From a bacterium (GTDB lineage Bacteria > Margulisbacteria > Marinamargulisbacteria > JABGVJ01), in NCBI GenBank assembly GCA_018646105.1, contig JABGVJ010000099.1:5387-69386 (forward strand): a DNA stretch of 64,000 nt, read 5' to 3'. The notes beneath the pieces were generated by a model that worked only from the letters and a program-made list of their open reading frames with translations, was not told the DNA's origin and did not search any database. Of the stretch, positions 45,441 through 64,000 are shown in pieces. The translations under genes were made by a program, and so were the position numbers. Within the stretch, counting starts at the first letter, position 1, and each line of letters starts with the position of its first letter.

Positions 45441-47866
45441 CCTCTATCATTAAATATATTAAAAATAAAGAAGTGTCTTTTGCACAGGCTGTAATAAAGC
45501 ATTATATAGTGCCTCAAGATGTTTTGGTTAAGAATATACCATCGGATGCGGTGGTATTAGATATAGGATGTGGAGAGGGAATTTTACTAAATGTTGTTGG
45601 GTATATGTTGTCTAAAAGTAAATGTATAGGTATTGATATTGATCGAAAAAAAATAGATATAGCTAAAAGAAATGCTAATCAAAATGTGGAGTTTAGGTGC
45701 CAGAATTTTTTTGACTTGGATTCTGATTTTAAAGTTGATGTAGTAATCATGAATGATTTTGTGCATCATTTTTCTTATTCTAAACAATTAGAGCTAATGG
45801 ATAACGTTGTAAGAAGAATTAAGCCAGGTGGTAAATTATTTTTAAAGGAAGTAGATCAATTAGATAAGCTAGATAGGGGTGTAACTACGTTTTTTGATAA
45901 AAAGCTTTATCCTAATGATGATTTATCTTATAGAACGAAAGATGAATGGTTAGTTTTTTTAAAGAGGTTAGGGATAACAAATGTTAAGGTAGAAAAAATA
46001 AAAAAAATGTGGCCGGCATCTAATACTTTATTGATAGCTAAATTACCGTTAGATAGAGATGTCGGATATGTTGATAATACAAAAAAAATTCAAGAAAGAA
46101 CGTTAGCTGCTAGAAAAAATAAACTAAAAACGGTTTTTGTAACAGGGGCAACAGGGTTTATTGGTAAATATGTTATAGACTATCTTTTAGAAAAAGGAAT
46201 GGCTGGAAATTCTGTAAGCTTAGTTTTGTTAACTAGAAATATGGATAACATTCCCAAAAAATATTTACATAATGAAAATATTGAGTGGCTAGTAGGGGAT
46301 TTGCATGATATGGAGCCACTTAAAGAATGTTTAGTGGAAATCGATTATGTTTTTCATTTAGCTGCAGAGGTTAAATTTTTTAAAGGTGCGGATGTTTGGA
46401 AAAATAATTATTACGGTACACTTTGTTTACTAGAAGCTTTAAAGGAAGTGAAGATAGAGCGATTTGTATTTGCAAGTACGATAGGCGCTTTTGATCGATT
46501 ACCGTCAGACTCTTGTACTCAACCATTAGATGAAAAGGCCGAGCCTAATCCGTTATCGGAATACGGTAAGTCAAAACTTGAAGCAGAAAGAGCGGTTAGA
46601 AATTCTGGTTTGAATTATACTATCGTGAGGATTCCTTGGGCGTATGGGAAAGGAATGACGCCGGATACCCATGTTAGAAATTTGATGCAGGCAGTGTATC
46701 AAAAGAAAATAGCTACCTGGTTTAATTTCCCAGGTAAAGTAAGTATAGTTGCAGCTCGAGATTTAGCAAGAGCTTTCATTTTTTTAGCAGAAAATAAGAA
46801 AGCTTTAAATGAGATATATTTTGTAACTGATGGGCAACCTGTTTCTTTAGGTGATTTATTTAAATTAATGGGAGATATTATTGGGACAAAAGCTGGATTT
46901 ATAAATATACCTAAAATTATTACTAAAATAGCACAGAGATTAAGGCGTTTTTTTCCCTTAGTTATTCAAAATTTAAATAGTGATGTTTTAACTGCTACAA
47001 ATGAAAAGGTTTTTAATGTTGGGTTTCAGATTGAAACTAGTAAAAGAGAAGGTTTACAGATTTTAGCGGAAGATGTCGGTATATTATCATCGGTTTTAAG
47101 AGAAAATGAAAAGCTGATAACTATTGTAACCGGAGCAGCCTCTGGTATCGGCAAGGCTTTGGCATCTAAGTTATCAGAATTAGGGCATCGCTTATTATTG
47201 ATAGATGTTCAAAAAATTAATGTTGAAAATTTTTCTAATCAGGTAAGGGTGGATTTTTTAAATTTAGATCTAACTAAAGTAGAATCATTAAATTTTATAG
47301 CAGATTATTTACAGAAAAATAAATATGTGGTGGACTGGGTTTTTAACAATGCAGGTATTGGCATACGAGGAGAGTTTGCAGAATTGAAATTTGAAGCACA
47401 GAAAAAAGTAATAGATTTGAATTGCGTGGTGCCTACTTTTTTATCTCATTTAGCTTTAAATCATTTTAAAAAATTTAATAGAGGTAGAATTATTAATATA
47501 GCCTCTTCTTCTGCTGTACAACCTCTTCCTTTGATGAGTGTTTATGCGGCCTCTAAATCTTATATTAAATCTTTTACGGAAAGTATAACCGGAGAAATGT
47601 TGGCTAAAAAAAATATTAGAATAACGACTGTTATTCCTTCTGGTACAGATACGGGGTTTCAAAAGGCTTCTGGTGTTAAAAAGAATGAAAATGAAAAATT
47701 GATGTCGGCAGAAGAAGTTTCTCGAAAAATTATAGATGCTGTTTTTAAAAATAAAAATATTGTTTACGTTGGTTTTCTAGGTAAAATAATGGCGATTTTA
47801 GCGAATATTTTACCGATTAATTGGCAAATTAAACTATGGTATACATTAATGAAAAAAATGAGGTGA
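45425..47866 (+). CDS. Tri-domain fusion: class I SAM methyltransferase, then NAD-dependent epimerase/dehydratase (extended SDR), then classical SDR
   Basis: LDIGCGEG motif; VFVTGATGFIGKYV with YGKSK (YxxxK); VTGAASGIGKAL with YAASK (YxxxK); 813 aa. Confidence 0.65.
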   Translation: MYQKLTSIIKYIKNKEVSFAQAVIKHYIVPQDVLVKNIPSDAVVLDIGCGEGILLNVVGYMLSKSKCIGIDIDRKKIDIAKRNANQNVEFRCQNFFDLDSDFKVDVVIMNDFVHHFSYSKQLELMDNVVRRIKPGGKLFLKEVDQLDKLDRGVTTFFDKKLYPNDDLSYRTKDEWLVFLKRLGITNVKVEKIKKMWPASNTLLIAKLPLDRDVGYVDNTKKIQERTLAARKNKLKTVFVTGATGFIGKYVIDYLLEKGMAGNSVSLVLLTRNMDNIPKKYLHNENIEWLVGDLHDMEPLKECLVEIDYVFHLAAEVKFFKGADVWKNNYYGTLCLLEALKEVKIERFVFASTIGAFDRLPSDSCTQPLDEKAEPNPLSEYGKSKLEAERAVRNSGLNYTIVRIPWAYGKGMTPDTHVRNLMQAVYQKKIATWFNFPGKVSIVAARDLARAFIFLAENKKALNEIYFVTDGQPVSLGDLFKLMGDIIGTKAGFINIPKIITKIAQRLRRFFPLVIQNLNSDVLTATNEKVFNVGFQIETSKREGLQILAEDVGILSSVLRENEKLITIVTGAASGIGKALASKLSELGHRLLLIDVQKINVENFSNQVRVDFLNLDLTKVESLNFIADYLQKNKYVVDWVFNNAGIGIRGEFAELKFEAQKKVIDLNCVVPTFLSHLALNHFKKFNRGRIINIASSSAVQPLPLMSVYAASKSYIKSFTESITGEMLAKKNIRITTVIPSGTDTGFQKASGVKKNENEKLMSAEEVSRKIIDAVFKNKNIVYVGFLGKIMAILANILPINWQIKLWYTLMKKMR

Positions 47867-48826: not shown

Positions 48827-49642
48827 ATGAAAAAAGTTAACTCTGGAGAAAAAATATTACATAAGGAAGAATCTTTTCATGATGATTGGGCGGCTAGTGT
48901 GGATATTGATAGAGTTGCAGTTGATGAGTTTTTTGAGGCTTGTACGGCTCCTGAAAATAGATACATCATGCAAAAATTGGGAGACTTGAATGGAAAAAGA
49001 ATATTGGAAGTTGGTTGCGGTTTAGGCGAGGCTTCTGTATATTTCGCTAAAAAAGGTGCGGATGTAGTTGCTACAGATATTTCTTCTGGAATGCTTGAGG
49101 TAGTAAAAAAATTAGCGGCTTTACATAACGTATCCTTGACCACTAAACAGGCTTATTCGCATGAATTAGATTTTGTTGATAATTCATTTGATGTTGTGTA
49201 TGCAGCAAATCTTTTACATCATATAGACTTAGAACCGACTTTAAAGGAAGTGAAAAGAGTTTTAAAAAAAGGGGGCGTATTTATATCTTGGGATCCATTA
49301 GCGCATAATCCGATGATTAATGTATATAGAAAAATGGCTATGAAAGTAAGAACTGATGATGAACATCCGATACAAATGAAACAATTAAAAATTTTCAAAC
49401 AATTTTTTTCTAAAATAGATATTAAAACGACTTGGTTTTTTACTTTATGGATTTTTTTAAAGTTTTATTTTATTGATAGAGTTGATCCAAATAAAGAGCG
49501 ATATTGGAAGAAAATAATAACAGATCATAAAAAACTAGAAAAAATGTATTATAGGCTGGAGAAGATAGATAATTTATTTTTGAAACTTTTTCCTTTTATG
49601 AGAAGGTTTTGTTGGAATATTGTGGTAATAGGAGAGAAATAG
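48827..49642 (+). CDS. Class I SAM-dependent methyltransferase
   Basis: ILEVGCGLGEASVYFAKKGADVVATDIS motifs; 271 aa. Confidence 0.65.
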   Translation: MKKVNSGEKILHKEESFHDDWAASVDIDRVAVDEFFEACTAPENRYIMQKLGDLNGKRILEVGCGLGEASVYFAKKGADVVATDISSGMLEVVKKLAALHNVSLTTKQAYSHELDFVDNSFDVVYAANLLHHIDLEPTLKEVKRVLKKGGVFISWDPLAHNPMINVYRKMAMKVRTDDEHPIQMKQLKIFKQFFSKIDIKTTWFFTLWIFLKFYFIDRVDPNKERYWKKIITDHKKLEKMYYRLEKIDNLFLKLFPFMRRFCWNIVVIGEK

Positions 49643-49644
49643 AT

Positions 49645-50949
49645 ATGAATTTTTTAAAAAGTAATAATTTTTTTACTCTTTGTGCTATTTTGTTTTTTGG
49701 TGTATTTTTTTTCTTTTTTGTTAATATTTTTTTTACGCATAAATATAATCCGGAAAAATATTTGAACTCAAATTTAATAGAAATTGCAAAACAAAAATTT
49801 ATTGATAAAGGCTATGAAAATATTCATTTTGGATTGATGCCGGCAAGATATAGAACCTTAATTAAGGCTGTTAATGGATATGCGTCTTCAAAAATTTATT
49901 TGGTAGTTAAAGATAAAAAAAGTTTTAAGGCTTTAAATTTAGCAGATGATAAGGGCTTTTATTTTTTTGTTATAGTTTTGATGAATATTTTTAATCTGTC
50001 TTTAAATAAAGCTATAGATGTATTTTTTATTTTTTTATTTGCAGGGGCTTCAATTTCGGGAATGATAGGTGGAATGTTTCTGTACAAAAAATGGTTGTTA
50101 AGAATGATTTATTTAAGTAGTTTGATGTTTATTAATTTTATTGCAATTAGGGTAGGGGGGTTATATGTCATAAATGCTTTATTGGTAGTTGCTTTTTTTC
50201 CTTGGGTATTATGGCTTTTTGAAAGAAATAAAATAGATAAAATAACTTTTATAGTATTGTCTGCTATTGTTTTTTTTATTTCGATAGCTCATTTTGTGCG
50301 AGTTTATTCAGGTGTTGGGCTATTATTATTTATGCTAATTTTATTATTTTATTTTGTTAAGAGCTCTTTGAAAAAAAAATGTTTGTTAATTTTTATTCTT
50401 CTTATGTTCGGTTTGCTTCCTGTGTTATTTTTTAATTCGTTGTTTAGTGAAAGAGATCTTTTTTTGAGAAAAAATGTAGCTAATTATACAAAACAAACAA
50501 ATATTGAAGGACATTATTTTTGGCATAATGCATATATAGGATTGGGATATCTTGAGAATCCTTATGTGTCAGCATATAAGGATGAAGTTGGTATAGCTAA
50601 AATCAAATCAGTAGATCCAAACGTTATTTTTGCATCTATGCAGCATCAAAAAATTTTAAAAGAAGCTTTTTTTGAATTAATTTTTAAACATCCACTATTT
50701 TTTATGCGTAATGTTTTTGCAAAATTTGGAGTTATTTTATTTTATTTTTTGGCTTCCGCAAATATTGGTTTATTTTTTGCTTATTTTTATAGGAAATCTA
50801 AAATACTTGAAGTTAGTTTTTTGGTAGCTTTGGGATTTAATGCTTTATTCGGAATATTGATAGTTCCATATTCAACTTATTTGCTTGGATTCATAGCTTT
50901 TGCCACTATGTATGGAATGGTAAGTATAAATTATTATTTAGAACAATGA
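49645..50949 (+). CDS. Polytopic membrane protein; possibly a GtrC-like/polymerase-like glycosyl-modifying membrane protein. Start set at MNFLKS.
   Basis: About 11 hydrophobic helices; no motif recognised. Confidence 0.3.
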   Translation: MNFLKSNNFFTLCAILFFGVFFFFFVNIFFTHKYNPEKYLNSNLIEIAKQKFIDKGYENIHFGLMPARYRTLIKAVNGYASSKIYLVVKDKKSFKALNLADDKGFYFFVIVLMNIFNLSLNKAIDVFFIFLFAGASISGMIGGMFLYKKWLLRMIYLSSLMFINFIAIRVGGLYVINALLVVAFFPWVLWLFERNKIDKITFIVLSAIVFFISIAHFVRVYSGVGLLLFMLILLFYFVKSSLKKKCLLIFILLMFGLLPVLFFNSLFSERDLFLRKNVANYTKQTNIEGHYFWHNAYIGLGYLENPYVSAYKDEVGIAKIKSVDPNVIFASMQHQKILKEAFFELIFKHPLFFMRNVFAKFGVILFYFLASANIGLFFAYFYRKSKILEVSFLVALGFNALFGILIVPYSTYLLGFIAFATMYGMVSINYYLEQ

Positions 50950-51953
50950 AAATAAAAGAGATAGAGCTAAAAAAGGATAACAAGTCACCTGTTTTTGCCT
51001 TCCCAAAGTATCTTGATTTTTGTTCCTCTGCTTATGGTTGGGTAGGGGGGGGGGTAAACAATGAGTTGAAATTTATTTTGCCATATACTTTAAAATCTAA
51101 ACTATGTTTTCGTTGGGTTATGTTTTATACGGCTACAATTTGTTTGGATGAAAATTTAACTATAGATCAGGAAAAAGATTTTTTAAATAGTGTAGTTGAG
51201 TTTTTTAAAGCTGAAAAAAAAATTGATTTTATATGTTCTCCGCCTGTTAATGCTGTTTTTAATGTTTATCCTAGTGAAGCAGTATCTGCTGCTTTTGGAA
51301 CATATCTTATTGATTTGAGTTTATCTGAAGAGATTTTATGGGATAAATTGCATTCTAAGCATCGGAATGTAATTAGAAAGGCTATGAAGGATCAAGTAAA
51401 TATAAAGAGAGGGAAAGAATATCTAGATTTAGCTTATAAACTTATCAAAGAAACACAGTTACGATCAGATAAAGGATTTTCTAGTATAGAAAAATTTAAA
51501 GAATTAATAAATTCTTTAGAAAATAACGTTGAAATATTTGTTTCATTTTATAAAGATAAACCACAAGGCTGCGCTGTTTTTTTGTATAGTGATTATGCTG
51601 TTTACTATCGTCATGGAGGAAGCATAGAGAGGCCTTTTACAGGTTCGTTAAATTTGCTTCATTGGGAAGCAATTAAGTATTTTAAGGCAAAAGGTGTGTT
51701 GAGATATGATTTTCTTGGCGCGAGAATAAAACCAGACAAAGGTTCTAAGTTAGAAGGCATACAACGATTTAAAAGTCGGTTTGGCGGAGAATTAAGGCAA
51801 GGGTATTTATGGAAATTGGTTGTAAGAAAATGGAAATATAGGTTATTTCAATTTATTTTTGCTATTAAAAATGGGACGTTTGAAGAAGATATTATTGATC
51901 AAGAAATAAAAAAGGCTAAGAAAGACAATGAAAAAAATATTGCTGACTTGTGA
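50946..51953 (+). CDS. FemAB-family (GNAT-fold) transferase-like protein, PEP-CTERM-locus-type. It contains an internal G10 tract.
   Basis: Size (335 aa) and pattern resemble FemAB-related polysaccharide-locus proteins. G10 at 51045-51054 is read as GGG GGG GGG. Confidence 0.4.
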   Translation: MKIKEIELKKDNKSPVFAFPKYLDFCSSAYGWVGGGVNNELKFILPYTLKSKLCFRWVMFYTATICLDENLTIDQEKDFLNSVVEFFKAEKKIDFICSPPVNAVFNVYPSEAVSAAFGTYLIDLSLSEEILWDKLHSKHRNVIRKAMKDQVNIKRGKEYLDLAYKLIKETQLRSDKGFSSIEKFKELINSLENNVEIFVSFYKDKPQGCAVFLYSDYAVYYRHGGSIERPFTGSLNLLHWEAIKYFKAKGVLRYDFLGARIKPDKGSKLEGIQRFKSRFGGELRQGYLWKLVVRKWKYRLFQFIFAIKNGTFEEDIIDQEIKKAKKDNEKNIADL

Positions 51954-52896
51954 TACGGAAGTAGGATTGCTTGAAGTTCCTATTAGGAAGGATGCTTTTG
52001 AAGTTTTTATTGAAGGAAAAATAAATTCTGAAGAAGTAGGCTATAAATTTATAAATAAAATTGCTTCAAAATATAAAGCTAAGGTTGAGCATTTTGTAGA
52101 TATTTATGCTTATGAAAAAGTTGGAGAAAAAAAGTTTGCAAATCTTTGTAATAATATTTTAGAAATGGGGCATAATATTTCCTTACATACGCATCCTTCT
52201 CATAAATATGACAGCAAAAGAAAATTTATGCATCAATATAGCTTGGCTGAACAAAAAGAGATTATTGAACATGGCAAAGAAAAAATTCATGAGTGGACTA
52301 AAAAAGAAGTAAGAGTGCATAGAGCTGGTGGTTATGGTATGAATTTAAATACGTTAAGAGCATTAAAATGCCATGATTTTAAAATAGATTGTTCTTATTT
52401 TAAAGGTCATCAAAATTGTTTGTATCAAAAAAAAGTATTTAATAGGCTGTTTTTACAAGAAGGTATTTTAGAAATACCAGTAAGCGTTTTTCAGAATAAT
52501 ATTAATTATTGGCCAGGAGCGATAAAGAGAAAAGTGATGACTAAGTTAGATTTTCGTTATGGGGCTGATACAAATCAAATTTTGAGAGTGATAGAGCAGG
52601 CGCCTGATAATGTTTTGATAGTGTTGTTTTTACATAGTTTTAATTTTTTGAATAGATTTTATGATTTTAAGTTAAAAAGGTTTAAGAGAATTACCATAAA
52701 TAGAAAACTTATTATAGAATATGAGAAACTTTTGGCTGGCATTAAAGATAGGCTTGATTGTGAATTTATAAGTTTAGATCAAATAGATAATTCTGATTAT
52801 GCAGATGACTATTTAGTTGATATTAATACAGCTAGATTTATGGGGAATGCTTTATTAGGTAAAGTAAATAATTTATTTCGGAATAGATATGTTTGA
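51928..52896 (+). CDS. Putative polysaccharide deacetylase-like (divergent CE4/DUF3473-like) protein
   Basis: N-terminal LLTCDTEVG and His-rich HNISLHTHPSH motif. Weak evidence. Confidence 0.3.
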   Translation: MKKILLTCDTEVGLLEVPIRKDAFEVFIEGKINSEEVGYKFINKIASKYKAKVEHFVDIYAYEKVGEKKFANLCNNILEMGHNISLHTHPSHKYDSKRKFMHQYSLAEQKEIIEHGKEKIHEWTKKEVRVHRAGGYGMNLNTLRALKCHDFKIDCSYFKGHQNCLYQKKVFNRLFLQEGILEIPVSVFQNNINYWPGAIKRKVMTKLDFRYGADTNQILRVIEQAPDNVLIVLFLHSFNFLNRFYDFKLKRFKRITINRKLIIEYEKLLAGIKDRLDCEFISLDQIDNSDYADDYLVDINTARFMGNALLGKVNNLFRNRYV

Positions 52897-54130: not shown

Positions 54131-56251
54131 ATGAATGTTTTAGAAAAAATTGTTAGAACGCCAATGCCAATATTAATAAATAAATTGTCACATAAATTAT
54201 TTTTTAAATTTTTTGAATATAGAGATTTATATTTTGATACAAGGATTAGTTTTGATGTAGAAAAAATTCAAAAAAACTATATTGATATTTCAAAGTTGGA
54301 TTTTTCTAAAATAGATAAAAAAGTAGTTAAATATTTAATAGATATGTATTTAAATCATAGATTTGATTTTTTGGGTAGTGGTTGGGTGACAAATAGTTAT
54401 GATTCAAAAGTTTTGGGTCTTGAGCAGTATAGATATGAAATGAATGTGGAAATAGAAAGGTTTGATAAGGAAGGAAAGTGGCTTAATAAAATTATTTTGT
54501 CAAAACATTTGAAAAGGAGTAAAAAAATTTGGCAACAAGTTTCTGAAAATTATATTCCAATTGATTGGCAGAAAGATTATAAGAGTGGCTTTCGGTGGGA
54601 TGCTAGAAAATGGTATAAAAATCAGCAGATAGGAGATAAATTAGGATCTGATATTAAAGTTCCTTGGGAATTAGCGAGATTACAACATTTACCGCAAATG
54701 GCCATATTTTCATTGGTTTTACCTAATAAGAAAGATCAATTGATATTGGAATTTAAAAATCAAATTTTGGATTTTATAGCTACAAATCCCCCAAGAATGG
54801 GTTGTAATTGGACTTGCGCAATGGATGTTGGTATTCGAGTAGCTAATATGCTTGTGGCTTATGATATGTTTTTACAAATAGATAACAATGGAATTTTAGA
54901 TAATAAATTTAAACAGATTTTTGCTAATTCAGTATATGAGCATGGGGTTCATATAATGAGTAATTTGGAGAATGGACTAATCACCTATAATCATTATTTA
55001 GCAAACATAGTTGGCTTATTATTCGTTGTTGCTTACTTAGAGAAAACTAAAATAGTTGATCGGTGGTTAGGTTTTGCAGTTAAGGAACTAATAAGAGAGT
55101 TTGATAAACAGTTTTATGAAGATGGTAGTAATTTTGAAGCGTCAACTAATTATCATAGATTAAGTGGTGAATTGATGATATATGGGGCAGCTTTTGTTTT
55201 AGGATTAGAGAAAGATAAAGCGGAAAATGTTTTTCCAGAATGGTTTTGGGAAAGATTATGGCGGGTAGGGAAGTTTACAGTAGACCTCACAAAAAAAACA
55301 GGTGAAATTTCTCAAATTGGAGATAATGATAGTGGTCGTTTTTTTAGGTTTTCACCAAGTGGGCTGTTTTTAACAAATAAACAGGCTGAAGAACAATATC
55401 TAAATTTAGAAGGTTATAATAAACTGATTAATAAACCAGCAGAACTTTTTTGGGATAAAAATATTTTAAATCATGCTACATTTGTGTCAGCTATAGATGG
55501 TTTATTTAATGATGAAAACTTTCAGAATTATAGTCATAATTTCCCTTTGGAAAAAAGTATCATAGAGGCTTTGGCAAAAGGTAAAAAGGTAAAGATTAAA
55601 GATGTAAAAGAAAGAGAAGTTAAGATTGAAAGCCAGGGGCTAGATTTAGAGAAATATGAATATCATAAAGAAACAGTTATTAAGCCATCCAGCAAGAAAA
55701 AGACTTCTTTAGATCAGAATTTAGTTTTAATTTCATATTCTGATACAGGTATTTATATTTTTAAATCAGATAGAATTCATATGACAATTTCAGCAGGACC
55801 AAATGGGCAAAATGGTAATGGTGGGCATGCGCATAATGACAAATTATCTTTTGAGCTTAATATAGATGGCGAAGATTTATTTGTGGATCCTGGTACGTAT
55901 CTTTATACGCCTTTACCAGAAAGAAGAAATGAGTTTAGAAGCGTGAAAGTTCATAATACTTTGGTGGTGGCTGATGAAGAACAGAATGATTTTAGAGATC
56001 TTTTTGGCTTAGTGAAAGAAGCTGAATGTATCATAAGGAAAATAAGCAATAAGGAAATAATAATAGAATTAAATTATAAAGATGTTATTTGTTTGAGAAA
56101 AATATGTATTATGGAAGATAAAATTTTAGTAAATGATTTTGCTAATAAAGAATTTAAAGTTAATTTTGTTGATGATTATTTATATTCTAATGGATATGGT
56201 AAGTTTTTTAAAAAAAGGAATGAGTTTGAAAAAAATATTATTTGTAACTAA
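54131..56251 (+). CDS. Heparinase II/III-like (alginate-lyase-superfamily) protein
   Basis: NWTCAMDVGIRVANM and the C-terminal GHAHNDKLSFEL heparinase II/III motif; 706 aa. Confidence 0.55.
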   Translation: MNVLEKIVRTPMPILINKLSHKLFFKFFEYRDLYFDTRISFDVEKIQKNYIDISKLDFSKIDKKVVKYLIDMYLNHRFDFLGSGWVTNSYDSKVLGLEQYRYEMNVEIERFDKEGKWLNKIILSKHLKRSKKIWQQVSENYIPIDWQKDYKSGFRWDARKWYKNQQIGDKLGSDIKVPWELARLQHLPQMAIFSLVLPNKKDQLILEFKNQILDFIATNPPRMGCNWTCAMDVGIRVANMLVAYDMFLQIDNNGILDNKFKQIFANSVYEHGVHIMSNLENGLITYNHYLANIVGLLFVVAYLEKTKIVDRWLGFAVKELIREFDKQFYEDGSNFEASTNYHRLSGELMIYGAAFVLGLEKDKAENVFPEWFWERLWRVGKFTVDLTKKTGEISQIGDNDSGRFFRFSPSGLFLTNKQAEEQYLNLEGYNKLINKPAELFWDKNILNHATFVSAIDGLFNDENFQNYSHNFPLEKSIIEALAKGKKVKIKDVKEREVKIESQGLDLEKYEYHKETVIKPSSKKKTSLDQNLVLISYSDTGIYIFKSDRIHMTISAGPNGQNGNGGHAHNDKLSFELNIDGEDLFVDPGTYLYTPLPERRNEFRSVKVHNTLVVADEEQNDFRDLFGLVKEAECIIRKISNKEIIIELNYKDVICLRKICIMEDKILVNDFANKEFKVNFVDDYLYSNGYGKFFKKRNEFEKNIICN

Positions 56252-57362
56252 AGATTTTTTACCAGCGATAGGTGGTGGGATTAGAAGAATAGAAGCTCTT
56301 TATAAGGCTTTTTTGGTGAATAAAGGGCTTACTTTAGAAGTAGTGACGGCTGAAAGTAGAGCGCAAGGGCGATACAAGGATGTGCAGTATATCTCACAAT
56401 TATTATTTAAGGATAAGATATCATCTGGAGGTGGATTATCGAGGTTAAATAATAAAGTTAAGATTAAGTTTTTTGATAAAGCTTTAATTGGTTGGTTACC
56501 AAATGTTATTTTTAGAATTTTTTATAAAAAATATGATTTGGTTTATTGTACGGTTCCTACTTTTACTAATTTATTAATAGGTTTTTTATATAAATTGGTA
56601 AGAATGAATAAGCCTAAGTTGATAGTTGAGTATCGAGATATGTATAGTTTTAATCCTGAATATAAAGATGGTTTTAGTAAGAAGTTTTTGCAAATTATAG
56701 AAAAATTAATTTTAAGAAATTGTGACTATATTGTAGTTACTACTCAGGGGATGAAAAATGTTTTTTCTGCTTTTATAGAAGATAATAAGATATGGATGAT
56801 GAGAAATTATGTAAGCAAAGATGATTTAAATATTATTAAAAAATTAGATAGAGATGAGTATGATAAGCGTTATTTTCATATTGGTTATGTAGGTACTTTG
56901 AATACAGGTCGCCATCCAGAAGTTTTTTTAGGTATGTTGAGGCTGAAAGTAAAGAACAAAGAAAGTGTTTTGCATTTTGTAGGAATAACAGAAGCTCAAA
57001 AGAAGGGCGTTTTAGAAATAATGGAAAACCGTGGCTTAGATAATACGAAAGTGATTTTTCATGGTAAAGTAAGTCGCTTAATTGCTTTGAAATATATGAA
57101 GTCCTTGGACGCTCTTTTTTTGATAATTAATAAGAAGGCTTTAATTAAAGATGGCTATGGTATTCCAGGGAAATTGTATGATTATATTCAAGCAAATAAT
57201 AATTTGTTTGCGGATTCAGTTACTTTTGACAATTTAAGTAGTGAGTTTAATTTAGAAATTATTGAACAGTATGATGATTATATTAATTTTTCTTTAAACG
57301 ATAGTACCTTATTGAATGATAAGTTGGAAATGTTTATAGATAAATTGGTTAAGGAGCTTTAG
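56220..57362 (+). CDS. GT4-like glycosyltransferase. Start set at MSLKKILFV (ATG at 56220, RBS AAGGAA); it overlaps the previous gene by 32 nt.
   Basis: FLPAIGGGIRR N-terminal GT4 pattern. Confidence 0.55.
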   Translation: MSLKKILFVTKDFLPAIGGGIRRIEALYKAFLVNKGLTLEVVTAESRAQGRYKDVQYISQLLFKDKISSGGGLSRLNNKVKIKFFDKALIGWLPNVIFRIFYKKYDLVYCTVPTFTNLLIGFLYKLVRMNKPKLIVEYRDMYSFNPEYKDGFSKKFLQIIEKLILRNCDYIVVTTQGMKNVFSAFIEDNKIWMMRNYVSKDDLNIIKKLDRDEYDKRYFHIGYVGTLNTGRHPEVFLGMLRLKVKNKESVLHFVGITEAQKKGVLEIMENRGLDNTKVIFHGKVSRLIALKYMKSLDALFLIINKKALIKDGYGIPGKLYDYIQANNNLFADSVTFDNLSSEFNLEIIEQYDDYINFSLNDSTLLNDKLEMFIDKLVKEL

Positions 57363-57365
57363 TGT

Positions 57366-58556
57366 ATGTTAGATAGAAATATAGTTAGATATCATTTTTT
57401 ATATCTTTTTATTTTTTTAAGTCCTTTTGTGAATAATATTAATGGATTTATGATGAAATTTTATAGTTTTAGTTTCGTAGGTCCGCTGTTTTATGCGATT
57501 TCTTTTTTATTTTTTGGTTTTAATATTTTACTTTATAGAAAAAAAGAAGTGTTATTAATAATTTTAGGGTTATTTTTCTATTTTTTGATTTTAGTTTTAA
57601 CGAATAGGTCTCCTTTTTCTAGCTTTGTTGTTTATATTAAATTAATTAACCCGATTATTATTTATTTTTATGTAAGGCATATGGTATTTGATAAGGATAA
57701 AATGAAGAAGATTATTCAAGTGATGATACTGTCAGCAGTATTGTATAGTAGTTTTATTGTTTTATCTGTTTTAACGGGTTTTACTTATTATGAAGGGAAG
57801 GGCTATATTGGGGCTATTCATGCAATTAATGCTCTTACTATGTATTATTTAGTGGTATTTTTCTTCTTGAGTATACTTAAGAGATCAGTTTCTAACAGTG
57901 AATTGTTTATATTTGTGGCTTATGTACTAATTAAAAGTAAGACGATCTTAATTTTTATGCCTATTTATATATATAGATTATTTAAATATGTATTAAAGAA
58001 TTGGAGTTTAGGTTTTAGATTATTAGGTTTTTTTGGGGGTATTATATTTAGCTATAAATATTTTTACGAATGGTTTATTTTGAAATTTCAGCAAAGTTTT
58101 ATAGATTTGTATTCTATGAGAGATTTATTTTTTTATTATACTTTAGACCAAGTATTAAATTTTTTGACTTTTGGCCGCTGGACTATATGGTTGTTGGTTT
58201 TGCAAAATTACAATAAAACTTTTTTAGATGTGATAATAGGTAGTGGATATTATGGAGCTAAATATTTGACAGGGGGGAAGATTGGGATAGAGATGGATGT
58301 ATTAAATGCTTTTAATGTATATGGAATGGTCGGCGTTTTTTTAATTTTTCTTTTTTACTATGTTCCTATTTTTAAGTTTAAAATTTCTAATTATAGTAAA
58401 TTATTATTTTTTGTTGTACTGGTATCTGCTTTTTTTGGAGGGCATTTGGCAGTAGGTCCAATAGCGAATACTATGTATGGTGTTGTTTTGGGGCTTTTGT
58501 ATAATAACGATAAAAAATTAGTGGGAGAATTTTTTGAAATACGTAATGGTGACTAA
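57366..58556 (+). CDS. Wzy-type polymerase/O-antigen-ligase-like membrane protein
   Basis: About 10-11 TM helices with one larger periplasmic loop; 396 aa. Confidence 0.45.
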   Translation: MLDRNIVRYHFLYLFIFLSPFVNNINGFMMKFYSFSFVGPLFYAISFLFFGFNILLYRKKEVLLIILGLFFYFLILVLTNRSPFSSFVVYIKLINPIIIYFYVRHMVFDKDKMKKIIQVMILSAVLYSSFIVLSVLTGFTYYEGKGYIGAIHAINALTMYYLVVFFFLSILKRSVSNSELFIFVAYVLIKSKTILIFMPIYIYRLFKYVLKNWSLGFRLLGFFGGIIFSYKYFYEWFILKFQQSFIDLYSMRDLFFYYTLDQVLNFLTFGRWTIWLLVLQNYNKTFLDVIIGSGYYGAKYLTGGKIGIEMDVLNAFNVYGMVGVFLIFLFYYVPIFKFKISNYSKLLFFVVLVSAFFGGHLAVGPIANTMYGVVLGLLYNNDKKLVGEFFEIRNGD

Positions 58557-59652
58557 TATTCCGGCACCTTATCGGGAAAAGGTCCATGAAAATGTGTCAA
58601 AATATTTTTGGGATGAATATTTGGTGGTTTATGCAGATAAGAAAGAATCAAATAGAGAATGGCAGTTTGATGATGGTAATTATAAAAAAATATTTTTAAA
58701 AAAGTTTTTATTTGAATATAAAGAGAAATTTATTCATATAAATTTTGATGTTTGGACTATATTAAATAAATATAATCCTCAAGTAGTCATAACCTGTGGT
58801 TTTAATCCTACTTTTTTAATGGCTTTTTTATGGGCTAAATTGAAACATAAAAAACATATCTGTATGACTGATGGCGGGGTTGGCTCAGAGAAGAGATTAA
58901 GTTTTTTGCATAGATTAGTAAGAAAAGTAGTTTATAAGTATTCAGATGCCTTTATAGGGGCGAGTGATAAAAGTTTAGATTTGTATAGATGTTATAGGTG
59001 TGATGAAAACAAATTATTTAAAAGTTGTTTGTGTATTGATAATGATTACTACGCTAAATTTATAAAGAAAATGGAAGATAGAAAATATGATATTATGTTT
59101 TCCGGTCGTTTTGTTGATGGTAAAATGCCCATGTTTTTTGCGGAAATTTGTGATGAATTAAATAAGAAAATAATAGATTTGAAAGTGTTAATTATTGGAG
59201 ATGGAGAATTAAAGTCTGTTTTTCTAGATAAATTACAAGAATATAAAATAAATTTTGATTATCCTGGATTTATAGATCAAAAAAAATTACCGTTATATTA
59301 TGCTGACAGCAAAATTTTGTTGTTTCCTACGAAGACGGATACTTGGGGTATAGTGGCTAATGAAGCTTGCGCTGTAGGGACCCCGGTAATTACGATGGAA
59401 TCCGCGGGAGTATCTGGAGAATTAGTAAAACATGATTATAATGGATATATTCTTGATTTGAATATTGAAACTTGGGCTAAATATAGTGAGTCACTCTTAA
59501 AAGACAATAAACTTCATAGTATTTTTTCTAAGAATAGTTTGGAAGAAGTAAAAAATTATAGTTATAGAAGGGCGGCTAAAGGAATTATAGATGCGATTAA
59601 TTATGTTAAAATTAAAAATAAAAAGAGGAGTAAAAAACGATGGATAAATTAG
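58534..59652 (+). CDS. GT4-family glycosyltransferase
   Basis: EACAVGTPVITMESAGVSGELV GT-B motif; 372 aa. Confidence 0.7.
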   Translation: MKYVMVTNIPAPYREKVHENVSKYFWDEYLVVYADKKESNREWQFDDGNYKKIFLKKFLFEYKEKFIHINFDVWTILNKYNPQVVITCGFNPTFLMAFLWAKLKHKKHICMTDGGVGSEKRLSFLHRLVRKVVYKYSDAFIGASDKSLDLYRCYRCDENKLFKSCLCIDNDYYAKFIKKMEDRKYDIMFSGRFVDGKMPMFFAEICDELNKKIIDLKVLIIGDGELKSVFLDKLQEYKINFDYPGFIDQKKLPLYYADSKILLFPTKTDTWGIVANEACAVGTPVITMESAGVSGELVKHDYNGYILDLNIETWAKYSESLLKDNKLHSIFSKNSLEEVKNYSYRRAAKGIIDAINYVKIKNKKRSKKRWIN

Positions 59653-60332
59653 GTATGACTTTTGAGCAATTTTTAGCAAATACGAGTCCAAATATAGCTT
59701 TAGGGAGTTTTGTATTTGATCTGTTATTAACGTTTTTATTAACTTTGCTATTAGGATATGTATATATAAAGTTTGGGCATGCGTTATCTAATCGTAAATC
59801 GTTTGCTAGAAATTTTGTTTTGATTACTATGACCACGATGTTGATTATTACAGTGGTTAAATCATCTTTGGCCTTATCTTTAGGTTTAGTGGGAGCTTTG
59901 TCTATTGTGAGGTTTAGGACAGCTTTAAAAGAGCCAGAAGAGTTAGCGTATACCTTTTTTGCGATAGCCCTAGGTTTGGGATTTGGTGCGAATCAAAGAG
60001 TGCTTACCATTGTTGCTTTTATAATCATTGTGGGTTTGGTTATAGCTAGAAGTTATTTTTCAAAACAAGGTGGAGCTCATCATAATTTGCATTTAACTAT
60101 TTCTAGTCATAAGCCGGAAAAGGTTAAGTTGACAGAAATAGTAGAGGTTTTGAAAGAGCATAGTGAAGCCGTAGATATGAAACGTTTAACAGAAGGTGAA
60201 GGTACATTAGATGTTTCTTTGTATGTAGAGTTTAATACTTTTGAACAATTAAATAAGGCTAAAGAAGCATTGCAAAGAATAGATAAATCTATAAACTTGA
60301 ATTTTTTTGATAACGCAGGGATTATGGCGTGA
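59640..60332 (+). CDS. DUF4956-family membrane protein
   Basis: SLGLVGALSIVRFRTALKEPEEL matches the DUF4956 conserved core (VGALSIVRFRT) as recalled; 230 aa. Confidence 0.5.
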   Translation: MDKLGMTFEQFLANTSPNIALGSFVFDLLLTFLLTLLLGYVYIKFGHALSNRKSFARNFVLITMTTMLIITVVKSSLALSLGLVGALSIVRFRTALKEPEELAYTFFAIALGLGFGANQRVLTIVAFIIIVGLVIARSYFSKQGGAHHNLHLTISSHKPEKVKLTEIVEVLKEHSEAVDMKRLTEGEGTLDVSLYVEFNTFEQLNKAKEALQRIDKSINLNFFDNAGIMA

Positions 60333-62908
60333 AGCTTAAAAGGCATCAGGTAAGATTAAAGATACCTCAAATAATAAATAAATTTTGGCAATCTTTGTTA
60401 AAAAGAAAAGTTTTATTAGGAGTAATAGTTGGTTTAGTAAGCTTGTTGGTTTTTTTGTTTTATAGTTTGTATATGGTTTATGTTGGGATTAATTTACATA
60501 AAACACAAAAAGCTCAGTCCCTAAAGGAAATAGTACATAATGTAGTTGCTAGAAAAATAGAATTTATTCCAAATTATTTTAAAGGGGTAGCAACTTCTAA
60601 ACCAACTCAAATAAGACTGGATATTAAGTTTAAAGATTATCAAAAAATGACATATTACAGAAAAGTTGCGCTTAGCAACTACACAATCCCTCCTTTTATT
60701 AAAGAAGAAGAGTTTTCTGCTGAGTTGATCTCTGATGGGCAGGTTATTCCAGTTAAATTAAAATTAATGGGCTTTAATTTGGATCATATCGGGGATTATG
60801 ATAAATGGTCGTTTAGAGTAAAGGCTAAAAAAAATAATACATTTTTTGGTATGAAGAAATTTTCGTTATTAGTGCCGCAATCACGTGGGTATCTTTCTGA
60901 ATGGATATATCATATGTTGAAAAAAAGAGAGGGTTTAATTTCTTTAAGATATGATTTTGTTGATGTGACAATTAATGGTAAACATAGAGGGTTATATGTA
61001 ATTGAAGAGCATTTTGATAAACGGTTGATAGAAAATAATAATTTAAGAGAAGGTGTATTATTTAAACCAGGGTTAGATAAGGTAGATGTTTATAATAAAA
61101 ATAAGATAAAGCAAAATCCAGTATTAAAAAAACAGTTGAATTTACTTAATAAATTATGGCAAGCTTTTTTAGTTGGTCAGATTCCGGCTAATAAATTGTT
61201 TGATATTGATAAATTAGCAAAATTTTATGCTATTACAGATTCAATTAATGGGCATCATTCTTTGTTAATATCAGATGGATATTGGAATTTAAATACCAAT
61301 TTAAATTTTTATTTTAACCCGATAACAAATTTGATAGAACCTATAGGCAGGGAAGGCAATTTGTTGCGTTATAGCGATAGAAGAGCTTCTTCAGTTTTTA
61401 TTAGTGCAGCTAGTAATTTTAGATTTCATAGGAAAGTATTTAATGATAGTGGTTTTGTTAATAAGTATATTCAAGCATTAGATAAGATTTCTAAAACGGA
61501 ATATTTAGATAATTTTTTTGAAAATATTGATAAAGAAATGCAAAAAAAGCTTAATATAATTTATAAATACAATCCCTTTTATGCGTACCCTAAAGAATTT
61601 TTGTATGAAAATCAAAAATATATAAGATCTGAATTATATTCTAAAAAAGTAGAGTTAGCGGTGTATTATCAGCAAAAGAATAAAAAAAGATTGCAGTTAA
61701 GGGTGGAAAATTTGCAAGTTTTACCTATAAAAATTATATCTGCTAAATTTGGAGATTTAATTTTAGAATCAGCGACAGAAATTGTTTTATCAGCAAAAGA
61801 AGCTAAGAAAGTGGGTTTTATAATTCCGTCAGATTTTGTTTGGCCTAAGACTGATGAGAATTTGGAGATAGGATATAAAGTATTAGGGCTAGATGATGTT
61901 AGAACCGCTATAGTTTTTCCTTGGTCGCACAAAAAAATAGAGCCGTTTAACTATAATCCAACTAAACAAGAACCTAATTATAAAAAGTTTAATTTAAAAG
62001 TAAATGAGAAATTAAAAACTATAGAGGTTAAAAAGAAGTTAATTTTAAGTAAAGATTTGGTTATACCGGCTGGCTATACGTTGATAGCTGGGCCAGGCAG
62101 TCGGATAAATTTGATAAATCAAGCTAAGCTTATTTTATATTCGCCACTTAAATTTATAGGATCTAAAAAAGCTCCCATTAAAATTTATTCTTCTGATTCC
62201 AAAGGGCAGGGGATTGTGGTGATGAATGCTAAAGAAGAATCGGTGTTGGAATATGTACAATTTAATAATTTATCTAATCCAGCACAAGCAGGCTGGTCGT
62301 TAACTGGCGCGGTAAATTTTTATGAGTCACCAGTAGTAATTAGTAATTGTTTGTTTAATAAAAATAGGTCTGAAGATGCGTTAAATATTATTCGTTCTAA
62401 ATTTGAAATCAAGGATACCTTGTTTGAGAAAATAAAGTCAGATGCTTTTGATTCGGATTTTTCTAATGGAATAATCAAAAACACATCATTTATTAATTGT
62501 GGGAATGATGCCATAGATGTATCTGGAAGTTTTGTGGAAGTGGAAGATGTGTTGATTGATGGGGTAGGAGATAAAGGAATAAGTGCGGGTGAAGGCAGTC
62601 AAATGATTGTAAAAAATATTGAAATAAAAAATGCGGAAATAGCAGTGGCCAGTAAGGATAGTTCTAGGATAGATTTGCAGGATAGTAAAATAAGTAAGAG
62701 TAAAGTAGGGTTTGCAGTTTTTCAAAAAAAATCTGAATTTGGACCTGGAATTATAGAGGCTTTAAATATAAAATTGAAAAAAGTCAAAGTGCCATATTTA
62801 GTAGAGAAAAAATCAACTTTATTGATTGATGGTAAAAAGAAGAAGTCAAAACAGAAAAAAGTTAAAGAAATTTTATATGGGAATGAATATGGTAAAAGCA
62901 GCAAATAA
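60329..62908 (+). CDS. CotH-kinase-family-like protein with a C-terminal parallel beta-helix repeat region
   Basis: Central region has a CotH-like pattern (LSLRYDFVDVTINGKHRGLYVIEEHF). C-terminal repeats (NAIDVSGSFVEV..DGVGDKGISAGEGS..) look like a right-handed beta-helix. The adjacent DUF4956 supports the call. Confidence 0.4.
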   Translation: MKLKRHQVRLKIPQIINKFWQSLLKRKVLLGVIVGLVSLLVFLFYSLYMVYVGINLHKTQKAQSLKEIVHNVVARKIEFIPNYFKGVATSKPTQIRLDIKFKDYQKMTYYRKVALSNYTIPPFIKEEEFSAELISDGQVIPVKLKLMGFNLDHIGDYDKWSFRVKAKKNNTFFGMKKFSLLVPQSRGYLSEWIYHMLKKREGLISLRYDFVDVTINGKHRGLYVIEEHFDKRLIENNNLREGVLFKPGLDKVDVYNKNKIKQNPVLKKQLNLLNKLWQAFLVGQIPANKLFDIDKLAKFYAITDSINGHHSLLISDGYWNLNTNLNFYFNPITNLIEPIGREGNLLRYSDRRASSVFISAASNFRFHRKVFNDSGFVNKYIQALDKISKTEYLDNFFENIDKEMQKKLNIIYKYNPFYAYPKEFLYENQKYIRSELYSKKVELAVYYQQKNKKRLQLRVENLQVLPIKIISAKFGDLILESATEIVLSAKEAKKVGFIIPSDFVWPKTDENLEIGYKVLGLDDVRTAIVFPWSHKKIEPFNYNPTKQEPNYKKFNLKVNEKLKTIEVKKKLILSKDLVIPAGYTLIAGPGSRINLINQAKLILYSPLKFIGSKKAPIKIYSSDSKGQGIVVMNAKEESVLEYVQFNNLSNPAQAGWSLTGAVNFYESPVVISNCLFNKNRSEDALNIIRSKFEIKDTLFEKIKSDAFDSDFSNGIIKNTSFINCGNDAIDVSGSFVEVEDVLIDGVGDKGISAGEGSQMIVKNIEIKNAEIAVASKDSSRIDLQDSKISKSKVGFAVFQKKSEFGPGIIEALNIKLKKVKVPYLVEKKSTLLIDGKKKKSKQKKVKEILYGNEYGKSSK

Positions 62909-63110
62909 GGACGTGACGCAAAATAGAATTTGGCGTTATGAACGGAAATTTTTTATTTCTGAACATAGTCGGTATGAAATAGAAAGTAATATTAAGTTGC
63001 ATCCAGCGTTTTTTTCTGAAATATATCATCAAAGATATGTGAATAATATTTATTTTGATTCTGTGAATATGGAAGATTATGTTTCTGGTGTTCAGGTTGT
63101 TTATGGCTAA
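62886..63110 (+). pseudogene. Truncated VTC/triphosphate-tunnel (TTM)-like ORF fragment. About 75 aa remain of an expected ~230 aa.
   Basis: RYERKFFI resembles the N-terminal ExExK(Y/F) strand of the TTM/VTC family. The ORF stops at 63110, and the next gene begins in a different frame. Confidence 0.3.
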
Positions 63111-64000
63111 TATTTTACTAATACATAATTATTATAAAATCAGAGGTGGGGAAGATGTTGTATTTGAGCAGGAAGCTGAAGCGTTGGAAAAGCGCGGACA
63201 TAAGGTAATCAAATATACCAGGCATAATGAAGAAATTGATCAATATGGGTTTTGGGAAAAGATAAGTTTTTTTTGGCGGGCGATTAGTAATCAGCGTACA
63301 AAAAGAGAATTGGAAGCACTTTTAGAAAAACATAAAATTGAGATTGCGCATGTTCACAATGTTTTTCCTTTGATTTCACCAATAATTTATAAAATATTGC
63401 ATAAACATAAAATAAAAGTTGTGCAGACGTTGCATAATTATCGTTTTTTGTGTCCTAACGGGCTTTTTTATAGAAATAAACAAATTTGTCAGAGATGTAG
63501 TAAGGGTGATTTTTGGTCTTGTGTTATTCATAAATGCTATAAGGACTCATTTATTTTTTCATTATTATATGCATTTATAATTAAACTTAATCAGAAGAAT
63601 TTTAAAAAGAATATAGATGGCTATATTGCTTTAACTCAATTTGCGAAAAATATATTTATTGATAATGGTTTTAAAGAAAAAAAGGTTTATGTAAAAGATA
63701 ATGGTTTTTTTGATCCGAAAAAGAGTCAAGAAGCATCAGAAGGGTATTTTTTGTATCTGGGTAGAATATCTGAGGAAAAAGGGCTTGATTTTTTATTAGC
63801 TAGTTTTGCTAAAATGCCGGAATACAAGCTAAAAGTGGCTGGCGCAGGATTTGATTTGGCTTGTTATAAAGAGAAATATCAGAATTTTGTAAATATTAAG
63901 TTTATGGGTAGAGTCGAAGGTGAAAAAAAAGATGTGCTGATACAGAAAACAGAAGCGTTGTTGATGCCTTCGGTTTGTTTTGAAAATTATCCTTTAGCGA
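63103..64000 (+). CDS. GT4-family glycosyltransferase, 3'-partial (runs off the window)
   Basis: MANILLIHNYYKIRGGEDVVFEQEAEALEKRGHKV N-terminal GT4 pattern. The frame is open to base 64000. Not in the supplied ORF track because no stop falls inside the window. Confidence 0.6.
   Translation, partial: MANILLIHNYYKIRGGEDVVFEQEAEALEKRGHKVIKYTRHNEEIDQYGFWEKISFFWRAISNQRTKRELEALLEKHKIEIAHVHNVFPLISPIIYKILHKHKIKVVQTLHNYRFLCPNGLFYRNKQICQRCSKGDFWSCVIHKCYKDSFIFSLLYAFIIKLNQKNFKKNIDGYIALTQFAKNIFIDNGFKEKKVYVKDNGFFDPKKSQEASEGYFLYLGRISEEKGLDFLLASFAKMPEYKLKVAGAGFDLACYKEKYQNFVNIKFMGRVEGEKKDVLIQKTEALLMPSVCFENYPLA

Follow-up and report, generated by a model that had tools for sequence, protein, structure and literature searches.

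A probably duplicated DUF4956-CotH-VTC gene cassette with an apparent repeat deletion in one VTC gene

The cassette and its described relatives

Genes for CotH, a 'poly-phosphate polymerase' and DUF4956 were described by Whitfield et al. (2020) as accessory genes of Gram-positive pel operons (PMC7112168). The same trio was found in S. intermedius (SIR_1594/1593/1592) in a preprint of 2024 (bioRxiv 10.1101/2024.04.20.589940), and no functional test of it is reported in either publication. CotH of Bacillus is a spore-coat Ser/Thr kinase, which in B. subtilis requires D228 and D251 for its activity (PMC7821199). In the present study, a copy of the trio was analyzed in a bacterial DNA stretch of 64,000 nucleotides (contig JABGVJ010000099.1, positions 5,387 to 69,386), which is called the window in the following. 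Its open reading frame (ORF) map shows, on the forward strand, the gene order DUF4956-1, CotH-1, a short ORF termed VTC-1 and a glycosyltransferase gene of the GT4 type, GT4a (Table 1).

This locus probably represents copy 1 of a duplicated cassette, in which VTC-1 lost 486 bp by a deletion between repeats and is redundant with an intact paralogue, VTC-2, while a function in phosphoryl transfer is suggested for the cassette.

DUF4956-1 contains the motif VGALSIVRFRT and matches Pfam family PF16316 with an E-value of 2.6e-16 (60.3 bits, gathering cut-off 30.6). Its stop codon overlaps the start codon of CotH-1 by 4 nt (GTGA). CotH-1 is a member of PF08757 (CotH; E 5.9e-9, 36.3 bits at a cut-off of 23.8, residues 155-416) and its C-terminal part matches Beta_helix PF13229 (E 2.7e-7, residues 669-802) as well as PF12708 (Pect-lyase_RHGA_epim). 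According to Pfam matches and ORF map, the locus is situated at the distal end of a polysaccharide island of the Wza/Wzc/Wzx type. These results agree with the original prediction, in which a DUF4956 protein with this motif, coupled by a 4-nt overlap to an 859-amino acid (aa) CotH-kinase-like protein with a C-terminal beta-helix, had been placed at the end of such an island.

The trio in the window and the pel-linked trio consist of the same three Pfam families, which are contiguous and attached to an exopolysaccharide locus. In both cases CotH is predicted to be secreted or extracellular, VTC to be cytoplasmic, and DUF4956 to comprise several transmembrane (TM) segments and a C-terminal ACT-like domain. 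However, the CotH protein of the window is a type-II membrane protein of ~860 aa with a beta-sandwich and a beta-helix, whereas the streptococcal protein has ~570 aa and an FN3 domain. Furthermore, the locus in the window is of the Wzx/Wzy/Wza type and not pel, and its cassette appears to be duplicated with one VTC copy internally deleted.

The gene context was surveyed in 80 GTDB genomes among the matches listed, in which DUF4956 and VTC were located by profiles; 54 loci were informative, as both flanks were visible. All three genes were present in 46 of the 54 loci (85%), with 35 being strictly adjacent in the order DUF4956-CotH-VTC. The remaining informative loci contain DUF4956 and CotH only (3, scored as lacking VTC when none was located within 5 kb), CotH and VTC only (2) or CotH alone (3). 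The trio is found in Planctomycetota, Bacteroidota, Omnitrophota, Gemmatimonadota, Methanosarcina, Methanogenium and Woese-/Nanoarchaeota (DPANN), and several of the loci are located inside polysaccharide clusters. The family of ~860-aa CotH/beta-helix proteins comprises 2,820 representatives (E <= 1e-30) out of 1.84 billion cluster representatives (clustering at 50% identity); the best 150 of the 2,820 nearly all have a length of 800-940 aa.

In the window the three genes are adjacent on the same strand and follow the conserved order, the third member being a deletion derivative. Due to the E-values and the conserved gene order elsewhere, a chance occurrence of this trio is excluded. The trio had originally been proposed as recurrent but functionally uncharacterised, which is confirmed by the survey and the pel study (PMC7112168). 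In the literature searched, no functional study of prokaryotic VTC, DUF4956 or this type of CotH was found, nor was any report of polyphosphate synthesis by prokaryotic VTC proteins. The trio is therefore a widespread, already noted and functionally uncharacterised neighbourhood, to which the copy in the window adds a decayed, duplicated member.

The closest relative of CotH-1 (51% identity) is encoded on contig L091 (398-6416) in the gene order DUF4956-CotH-CotH-VTC. The two tandem CotH genes differ in their subtype (GRE and GYN), and one DUF4956 and one VTC gene flank both of them. In Methanogenium marinum (contig L009, 8695-9771) a metallophosphoesterase gene is located between CotH and VTC, and the cassette lies outside any polysaccharide locus.

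The internally deleted VTC gene

The short ORF contains the motif RYERKFFI and was assigned 73, 75 or 77 aa by the gene callers. It had been taken for the N-terminus of a VTC-like domain ending far short of the usual ~230 aa, and searches with PF16316, PF08757 and PF09359 had been suggested as a check. The first two profiles matched their proteins as given above, but the short ORF showed no Pfam match even at E <= 1 and did not reach the gathering threshold of PF09359. Its homology to VTC-domain proteins was established in other ways, which bear out the proposed identity. The sole relative of the short ORF in a search of 5.8 billion proteins is a fragment of an ordinary PF09359 (VTC) protein, with 65% identity to its N-terminus over 55 aa. 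In addition, it matches positions 3-64 of a custom VTC profile of 232 positions, built from the VTC genes adjoining CotH homologues, with an E-value of 2e-22. Finally, 59 residues could be aligned with VTC-2 with 3 differences, and 10 of 177 nt differ in the retained part (ratio of non-synonymous to synonymous substitution rates, dN/dS, ~0.2).

VTC-2 is located on contig L092 (5108-5824), a 6.4-kb contig from the Joint Genome Institute (JGI). It is intact and matches PF09359 from profile position 2 to 235 of 235 (E 4.8e-29, 102 bits, cut-off 23). The proteins of VTC-1 and VTC-2 align from NRIWRYERKFFISEHSRYEIE through NMEDYVS and diverge afterwards: VTC-2 continues with NVSGLASRKKVRIRWYG for 162 further residues and ends with SKYVSGVQVIYG before its stop codon, whereas the ORF in the window jumps from DYVS to GVQVVYG and the stop, its last seven residues, GVQV(V/I)YG, being common to both proteins. 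The sequence TATGTTTCT is present twice on L092, at positions 5309 and 5795, which are exactly 486 bp apart, and once in the window. The DNA of the window equals the left flank of VTC-2 up to the repeat and its right flank after the repeat. These alignments indicate that VTC-1 very probably arose from a VTC gene by the in-frame loss of 486 bp between two direct repeats of 9 bp (TATGTTTCT).

VTC-1 has retained the N-terminal ~70 residues, comprising the RYERKF strand, a helix and a second strand, as well as the last seven residues and the stop codon. The 162 missing codons include those for the conserved VTC-2 strands RIRWYG, LEFK, NRYSRKY, RLTID and LELKY, and a complete eight-stranded tunnel of ~230 aa is not encoded. 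Since only the first strand-helix-strand of the tunnel is left, the VTC-1 product is, judged by its sequence, incapable of forming a triphosphate tunnel or of being catalytic. The assumption of a VTC pseudogene thus holds for the copy in the window, but probably not for the system, as VTC-2 is intact.

The short ORF had been ascribed to an insertion of the adjacent GT4 gene, and a frameshift had been considered, which if corrected would restore a full VTC ORF. A sole VTC gene cut short by such an insertion, a frameshift or a sequencing error would leave the module without a VTC partner, and the end of the ORF ~160 residues early as well as the different frame of the next gene are in line with this. 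However, the intact VTC-2 and the following GT4 gene (GT4b) show the same ATGGCTAA stop/start overlap as VTC-1 and GT4a, which overlap by 8 nt, and contig L007, a relative, also carries VTC followed by GT4. Based on this, GT4 is a native neighbour of VTC. The missing part is an exact in-frame block between the repeats, and neither a VTC remnant nor the deleted block was found in any reading frame downstream or in the rest of the 64-kb window. No read correction could restore the ORF, six independent assemblies agree in the junction, and a disruption of this kind is highly improbable. It was also considered whether the short ORF marks the point at which a segmental duplication ended within VTC; this was dropped, since L092 shows that the last seven codons and the GT4 overlap are the native 3' end of VTC.

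The repeats in the locus and the mosaic or collapsed state of some contigs would fit an assembly artefact, namely a false join of the 5' end of a full-length VTC gene to its 3' end. The identity at the breakpoint, however, is 9 bp and far below the k-mer sizes (contig names k141_ and NODE_; k up to 141). An identical CotH-1 protein is encoded on 11 contigs, and the short ORF with its junction is base-for-base identical in all six contigs read, which originate from at least five samples and from SPAdes-type and MEGAHIT assemblies, so an artefact is hardly credible. Among the 66 VTC genes beside CotH homologues in the 80 other genomes surveyed, none was internally shortened; 61 are of full length and five are cut by contig ends. 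These comparisons point to a real and unusual deletion.

The native start, the native stop and the 8-nt overlap with GT4a are all preserved in VTC-1. As the deletion is in frame, the translation of the downstream genes should be undisturbed. The same features, together with the few differences from VTC-2 and the dN/dS of ~0.2, would also be expected if the product of 73-94 aa were a functional small protein, e.g., an adaptor or regulator binding DUF4956 or CotH. This is improbable, because the substitutions are too few to show selection and gene conversion accounts for the similarity. Moreover, no such short form is present among the VTC genes of the survey, the only database relative is a fragment of an ordinary VTC gene, and all of the conserved strands named above are deleted.

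A probable second cassette beyond the window end

The window contains no other copies of VTC, DUF4956 or CotH. A second cassette was found ~2.3 kb past its end, on contigs which overlap the window end or carry the same genes. A 74-kb JGI contig joins both cassettes on one molecule, in the order Hepar_II_III ... DUF4956 (230 aa)-CotH (859 aa)-73-aa ORF-GT4 (389 aa)-WecG (258 aa)-orf60-DUF4956 (230 aa)-CotH (877 aa); its upstream genes are as in the window and its CotH is at least 90% identical to CotH-1. Contig L090 is 100% identical to positions 63611-64000 of the window and then runs into cassette 2, and L092 supplies the intact VTC-2 and GT4b. Furthermore, all three NCBI metagenome-assembled genomes (MAGs) with DUF4956-1 have a second DUF4956 gene, at least 90% identical, on another contig. 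The full length of GT4a and the following WecG gene are visible in contig L004 and in the 74-kb JGI contig.

The two DUF4956 genes show 96% DNA identity (dN 0.008, dS 0.21). CotH-2 (877 aa) is of a different CotH subtype, with EPIGFD instead of the EPIGRE of CotH-1; the two proteins have 23-43% aa identity over the N-terminal 600 residues and 65-100% in the beta-helix, whose segments show a dN/dS of 0.13-0.2. At the DNA level, the beta-helix and the VTC 5' end are ~86% identical between the cassettes, and GT4 is mosaic. On contig L005, five synonymous variants of DUF4956-1 (window 59873-59948) all correspond to the DUF4956-2 bases of L092 and probably are a short conversion tract between the DUF4956 paralogues. 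In the GT4 gene after the deleted VTC on contigs L001 and L002 (12966-13236; window 63294-63564), 38 of 38 and 33 of 33 variants are GT4b bases. Either gene conversion or path switching by the assembler could have produced these patterns, and in both cases the two units have to be in the same population. Taken together, the second cassette is likely to belong to the same genome.

The two ends of L092 repeat each other, with the last 80 bp (6328-6407) being identical to positions 52-131 (within 1-131). This shows a loop of the assembly graph through the GT4-WecG-orf60-DUF4956-CotH-VTC unit.

The proposed genome would have the order DUF4956-1, CotH-1, VTC-1 (deleted), GT4a, WecG, orf60, DUF4956-2, CotH-2, VTC-2, GT4b, WecG, orf60 and nadCAB. 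The single intact VTC-2 would serve both DUF4956/CotH pairs, and such a supply of the VTC function in trans is slightly more likely than not. It would explain why the deletion is tolerated while DUF4956-1 and CotH-1 stay intact and constrained. The deleted VTC-1 is probably redundant, as a second, intact cassette is nearby and the cassettes exchange sequence. One VTC gene for two CotH genes has a precedent in L091.

Some observations weigh against this explanation. The two TATGTTTCT repeats are known from the paralogue VTC-2 and not from an intact allele of VTC-1. Cassette 2 is situated beyond the window, and its presence was deduced from metagenomic contigs that overlap. In addition, contig L004, which matches 4.2 kb of the window with 100% identity, runs through GT4-WecG-orf60 into nadC-nadA-nadB without cassette 2. 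Taken literally, this path describes a genome with a single cassette and the deleted VTC as its only copy, in which DUF4956-1 and CotH-1 would work without VTC or be at an early stage of decay. The 3 of 54 surveyed loci with DUF4956 and CotH but no VTC within 5 kb and the 3 of 54 with CotH alone are compatible with such a genome. However, L004 and L090 are identical for ~1.3 kb and all of their differences cluster within the 350 bp directly ahead of the branch, a pattern typical of a collapsed repeat. The path of L004 is therefore attributed to the assembler having crossed a repeat of >1.3 kb without any difference between the two units (collapse of the GT4-WecG-orf60 block). A single-cassette genome is also contradicted by the 74-kb contig, the second DUF4956 of all three MAGs and the GT4b-type bases in contigs after the deleted VTC, and is regarded as unlikely compared to two cassettes with one intact VTC gene.

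Protein domains, surroundings and possible function

The AlphaFold2 (AF2) model of CotH-1 has a predicted local distance difference test (pLDDT) value of 90 and shows the atypical-kinase fold. Its best Foldseek matches are the B. cereus CotH structures 5jd9/5jda (E 1e-11, TM-score 0.62-0.65 on the target). The CotH family profile has 5jd9 as its sole match in the PDB (E 2.8e-11, residues 24-354 of 359). Nine K/R residues are found among the 27 residues preceding the single hydrophobic segment of CotH-1, which by the positive-inside rule implies that its N-terminus would be inside and the bulk of the protein outside the cytoplasm.

The C-terminal region has the fold of carbohydrate-active beta-helix proteins, with Foldseek matches to GH87 (6K0M), polygalacturonase (GH28), PL6 alginate lyase (7O84), AlgG C5-epimerase (4NK6) and tailspikes. 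Different from these, the sequence identity to CotH-1 is 8-15%, and no catalytic motif was recognised, with none being specifically checked. The beta-helix may only bind a polymer.

DUF4956-1 has five predicted TM helices (residues 21-143; AF2 model, pLDDT 72), followed by a ferredoxin-like (ACT/PII-like) domain with the order beta-alpha-beta-beta-alpha-beta (residues 148-224), which is predicted to be cytoplasmic and has weak Foldseek matches to PII-like SbtB and to ACT folds. There are 7,948 DUF4956 homologues at E <= 1e-5, and PF16316 is found on all listed ones. An alignment of 41 homologues contains 47 invariant columns, and the sequence KSSLALSLGLVGALSIVRFRxAIKEPEELAY is near-invariant from bacteria to archaea.

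A further comparison is offered by the yeast VTC complex (triphosphate tunnel metalloenzyme, TTM, domain of Vtc4; 3G3Q, 8I6V). VTC-2 belongs to the same family PF09359 and weakly matches the catalytic domains of Vtc2/Vtc4, and in both systems there is a genetic link between the soluble tunnel enzyme and a membrane protein; VTC-2 itself has no TM segment in its sequence. In contrast to yeast, no protein of the cassette has a Pfam match to SPX or DUF202. The membrane partner is a separate DUF4956 gene with five helices and the ACT-like domain instead of a three-helix DUF202, and Foldseek gave no structural similarity of DUF4956 to the VTC channel. A VTC-channel-like fold of the DUF4956 membrane part was considered and is unsupported, as neither 8I6V nor any other VTC entry was matched by the structure.

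The polysaccharide island, which is preceded by ordinary housekeeping genes, encodes a Wza-like exporter, a CpsB phosphatase, a Wzc-like tyrosine kinase, an initiating sugar transferase, a Wzx flippase, several glycosyltransferases, a heparinase II/III-like protein and a probable Wzy. Due to the Wza-like exporter, the host is presumably a diderm; its GC content is ~29%. GT4 domains were identified by Pfam in both glycosyltransferases flanking cassette 1. The 3'-terminal ~12 codons of the upstream GT4 gene (58534-59652) fall into the segment shared with cassette 2, which starts at 59617, so that the C-terminus of this GT4 is encoded by what is intergenic or ribosome-binding site sequence in cassette 2. 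A promoter and terminator scan of positions 58400-64000 yielded nothing above shuffled expectation.

Table 1. Features of the cassette and its borders (window coordinates).
Feature	Position	Strand	Basis
Upstream GT4 gene	58534-59652	+	
Left border of the stretch in common with cassette 2	59617..59639	+	Similarity to L090/L092 starts ~23 nt before the DUF4956-1 ATG
AGGAG ribosome-binding site of DUF4956-1	within 59617..59639	+	Within the upstream GT4 gene, at its 3' end
DUF4956-1, 230 aa	59640..60332	+	Pfam PF16316
CotH-1, 859 aa, GTG start	60329..62908	+	Pfam PF08757 and Beta_helix; AF2; Foldseek
Predicted N-terminal membrane anchor of CotH-1, ~residues 28-54	60410..60490	+	Hydropathy, charge count; one long helix (residues 12-58) in the model
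CotH kinase-like domain, ~residues 90-436	60596..61636	+	Profile alignment, AF2, Foldseek
8-residue insertion SDGYWNLN, residues 315-322	61271-61294	+	Loop bearing the catalytic Asp in Bacillus CotH
Beta-sandwich linker domain, ~residues 443-530	61655..61918	+	AF2 secondary structure
Right-handed parallel beta-helix, carbohydrate-active type, ~residues 556-833	61994..62827	+	Pfam PF13229/PF12708, Foldseek
VTC-1 with apparent internal deletion	62877..63110 (ATG, 77 aa) or from TTG 62826 (94 aa)	+	Custom VTC profile; comparison with VTC-2
Probable deletion scar, single TATGTTTCT copy	63078..63086	+	Two copies 486 bp apart in the paralogue VTC-2
GT4a glycosyltransferase, 389 aa when complete, truncated here by the window end, in a different frame from VTC-1	63103..64000	+	Pfam Glyco_transf_4/Glycos_transf_1

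Inside the island, an 813-aa fusion of S-adenosylmethionine methyltransferase, NAD-dependent epimerase/dehydratase and short-chain dehydrogenase domains is encoded at 45425-47866 (+), adjoining a radical-SAM gene at 44235-45440. Four further island ORFs of 322-446 aa (49609-50949, 51928-52896, 56133-57362 and 32814-34142; +) have no Pfam match at E <= 1e-4. Further upstream, genes for a pyrophosphate-dependent phosphofructokinase and a Na+-translocating membrane pyrophosphatase are located close together at 9150-10922 (-) and 13513-15741 (-). The organism appears to lean on pyrophosphate energetics.

With regard to function, the cassette would span the membrane, with the VTC/TTM enzyme and the DUF4956 ferredoxin-like domain inside and CotH with its beta-helix outside on the polysaccharide. 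On the inner side of the membrane, the cytoplasmic enzyme would act together with the 5-TM DUF4956 on polyphosphate or a nucleoside triphosphate. The outward CotH-like domain, held on the polysaccharide by the beta-helix, would phosphorylate either this polymer or a surface protein. Such a phosphoryl transfer is a tentative proposal, the preferred one for the mechanism but rather unlikely to be correct in this form, and is drawn from domain content and predicted topology.

Concerning catalysis, CotH-1 resembles Bacillus CotH (5JD9/5JDA) in retaining the conserved Asn (N324) and Glu (E337); its residue in the metal-Asp column is acidic, but Glu instead of Asp. Different from Bacillus CotH, it has no spore context, is predicted to be extracytoplasmic and carries extra domains. 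The column of the metal-binding Asp (D251 of B. subtilis) contains D in 26, E in 21 and N in 2 sequences, with E342 in CotH-1, and divides the family into an EPIGRE and an EPIG(F/Y)D subtype.

Three findings speak against the proposed function. First, the position of the catalytic Asp of Bacillus is a variable A/G/S/T column in this family, in which an invariant His (H310; 48 of 49 sequences) is found one residue earlier; the column was assigned by a HMMER alignment and not by structural superposition, so that a shift of the loop by one residue is possible, and D228 of B. subtilis was equated with D224 of 5JD9 on account of the distance of 23 residues to the second Asp. Second, the catalytic loop of CotH-1 carries the 8-residue insertion SDGYWNLN between the family-invariant His310 and Asn324, which is present in CotH-1 only among 49 aligned homologues, is absent from CotH-2 and coincides with a dip in pLDDT. 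Third, the membrane domain of DUF4956 gave no Foldseek match to the yeast VTC channel or anything else.

In a bolder form, DUF4956 and VTC would be a prokaryotic counterpart of the vacuolar polyphosphate synthase/translocase, fuelling a CotH kinase on the outside. ATP is not expected outside the cytoplasm. The tunnel enzyme would make a polyphosphate chain or hand on phosphoanhydride groups, and DUF4956, with its invariant RFRxxIKEPEE face on the cytoplasmic side, would pass polyphosphate outward. The CotH-like enzyme could then (poly)phosphorylate a capsule or exopolysaccharide polymer gripped by the beta-helix, using polyphosphate as fuel, and the invariant His at the site of the Bacillus catalytic Asp would fit a phospho-histidine chemistry. 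Two CotH subtypes on one beta-helix and one VTC, as in the window organism and L091, might provide two modifications of one polymer. This form, built on the analogy to yeast, is doubtful.

For the window itself the result is mostly corrective: one copy seems to have decayed by a repeat-mediated deletion, which is ordinary gene decay in a probably redundant copy and most likely leaves the system complete. Of wider value are the breadth and function of the cassette and not the truncation. The natural pair of cassettes, one with and one without VTC and with two CotH subtypes on the same beta-helix, would be a handy start for genetics and biochemistry. If the cassette carries phosphoryl groups across the membrane onto surface polymers, it would represent a new route of extracytoplasmic phosphorylation.

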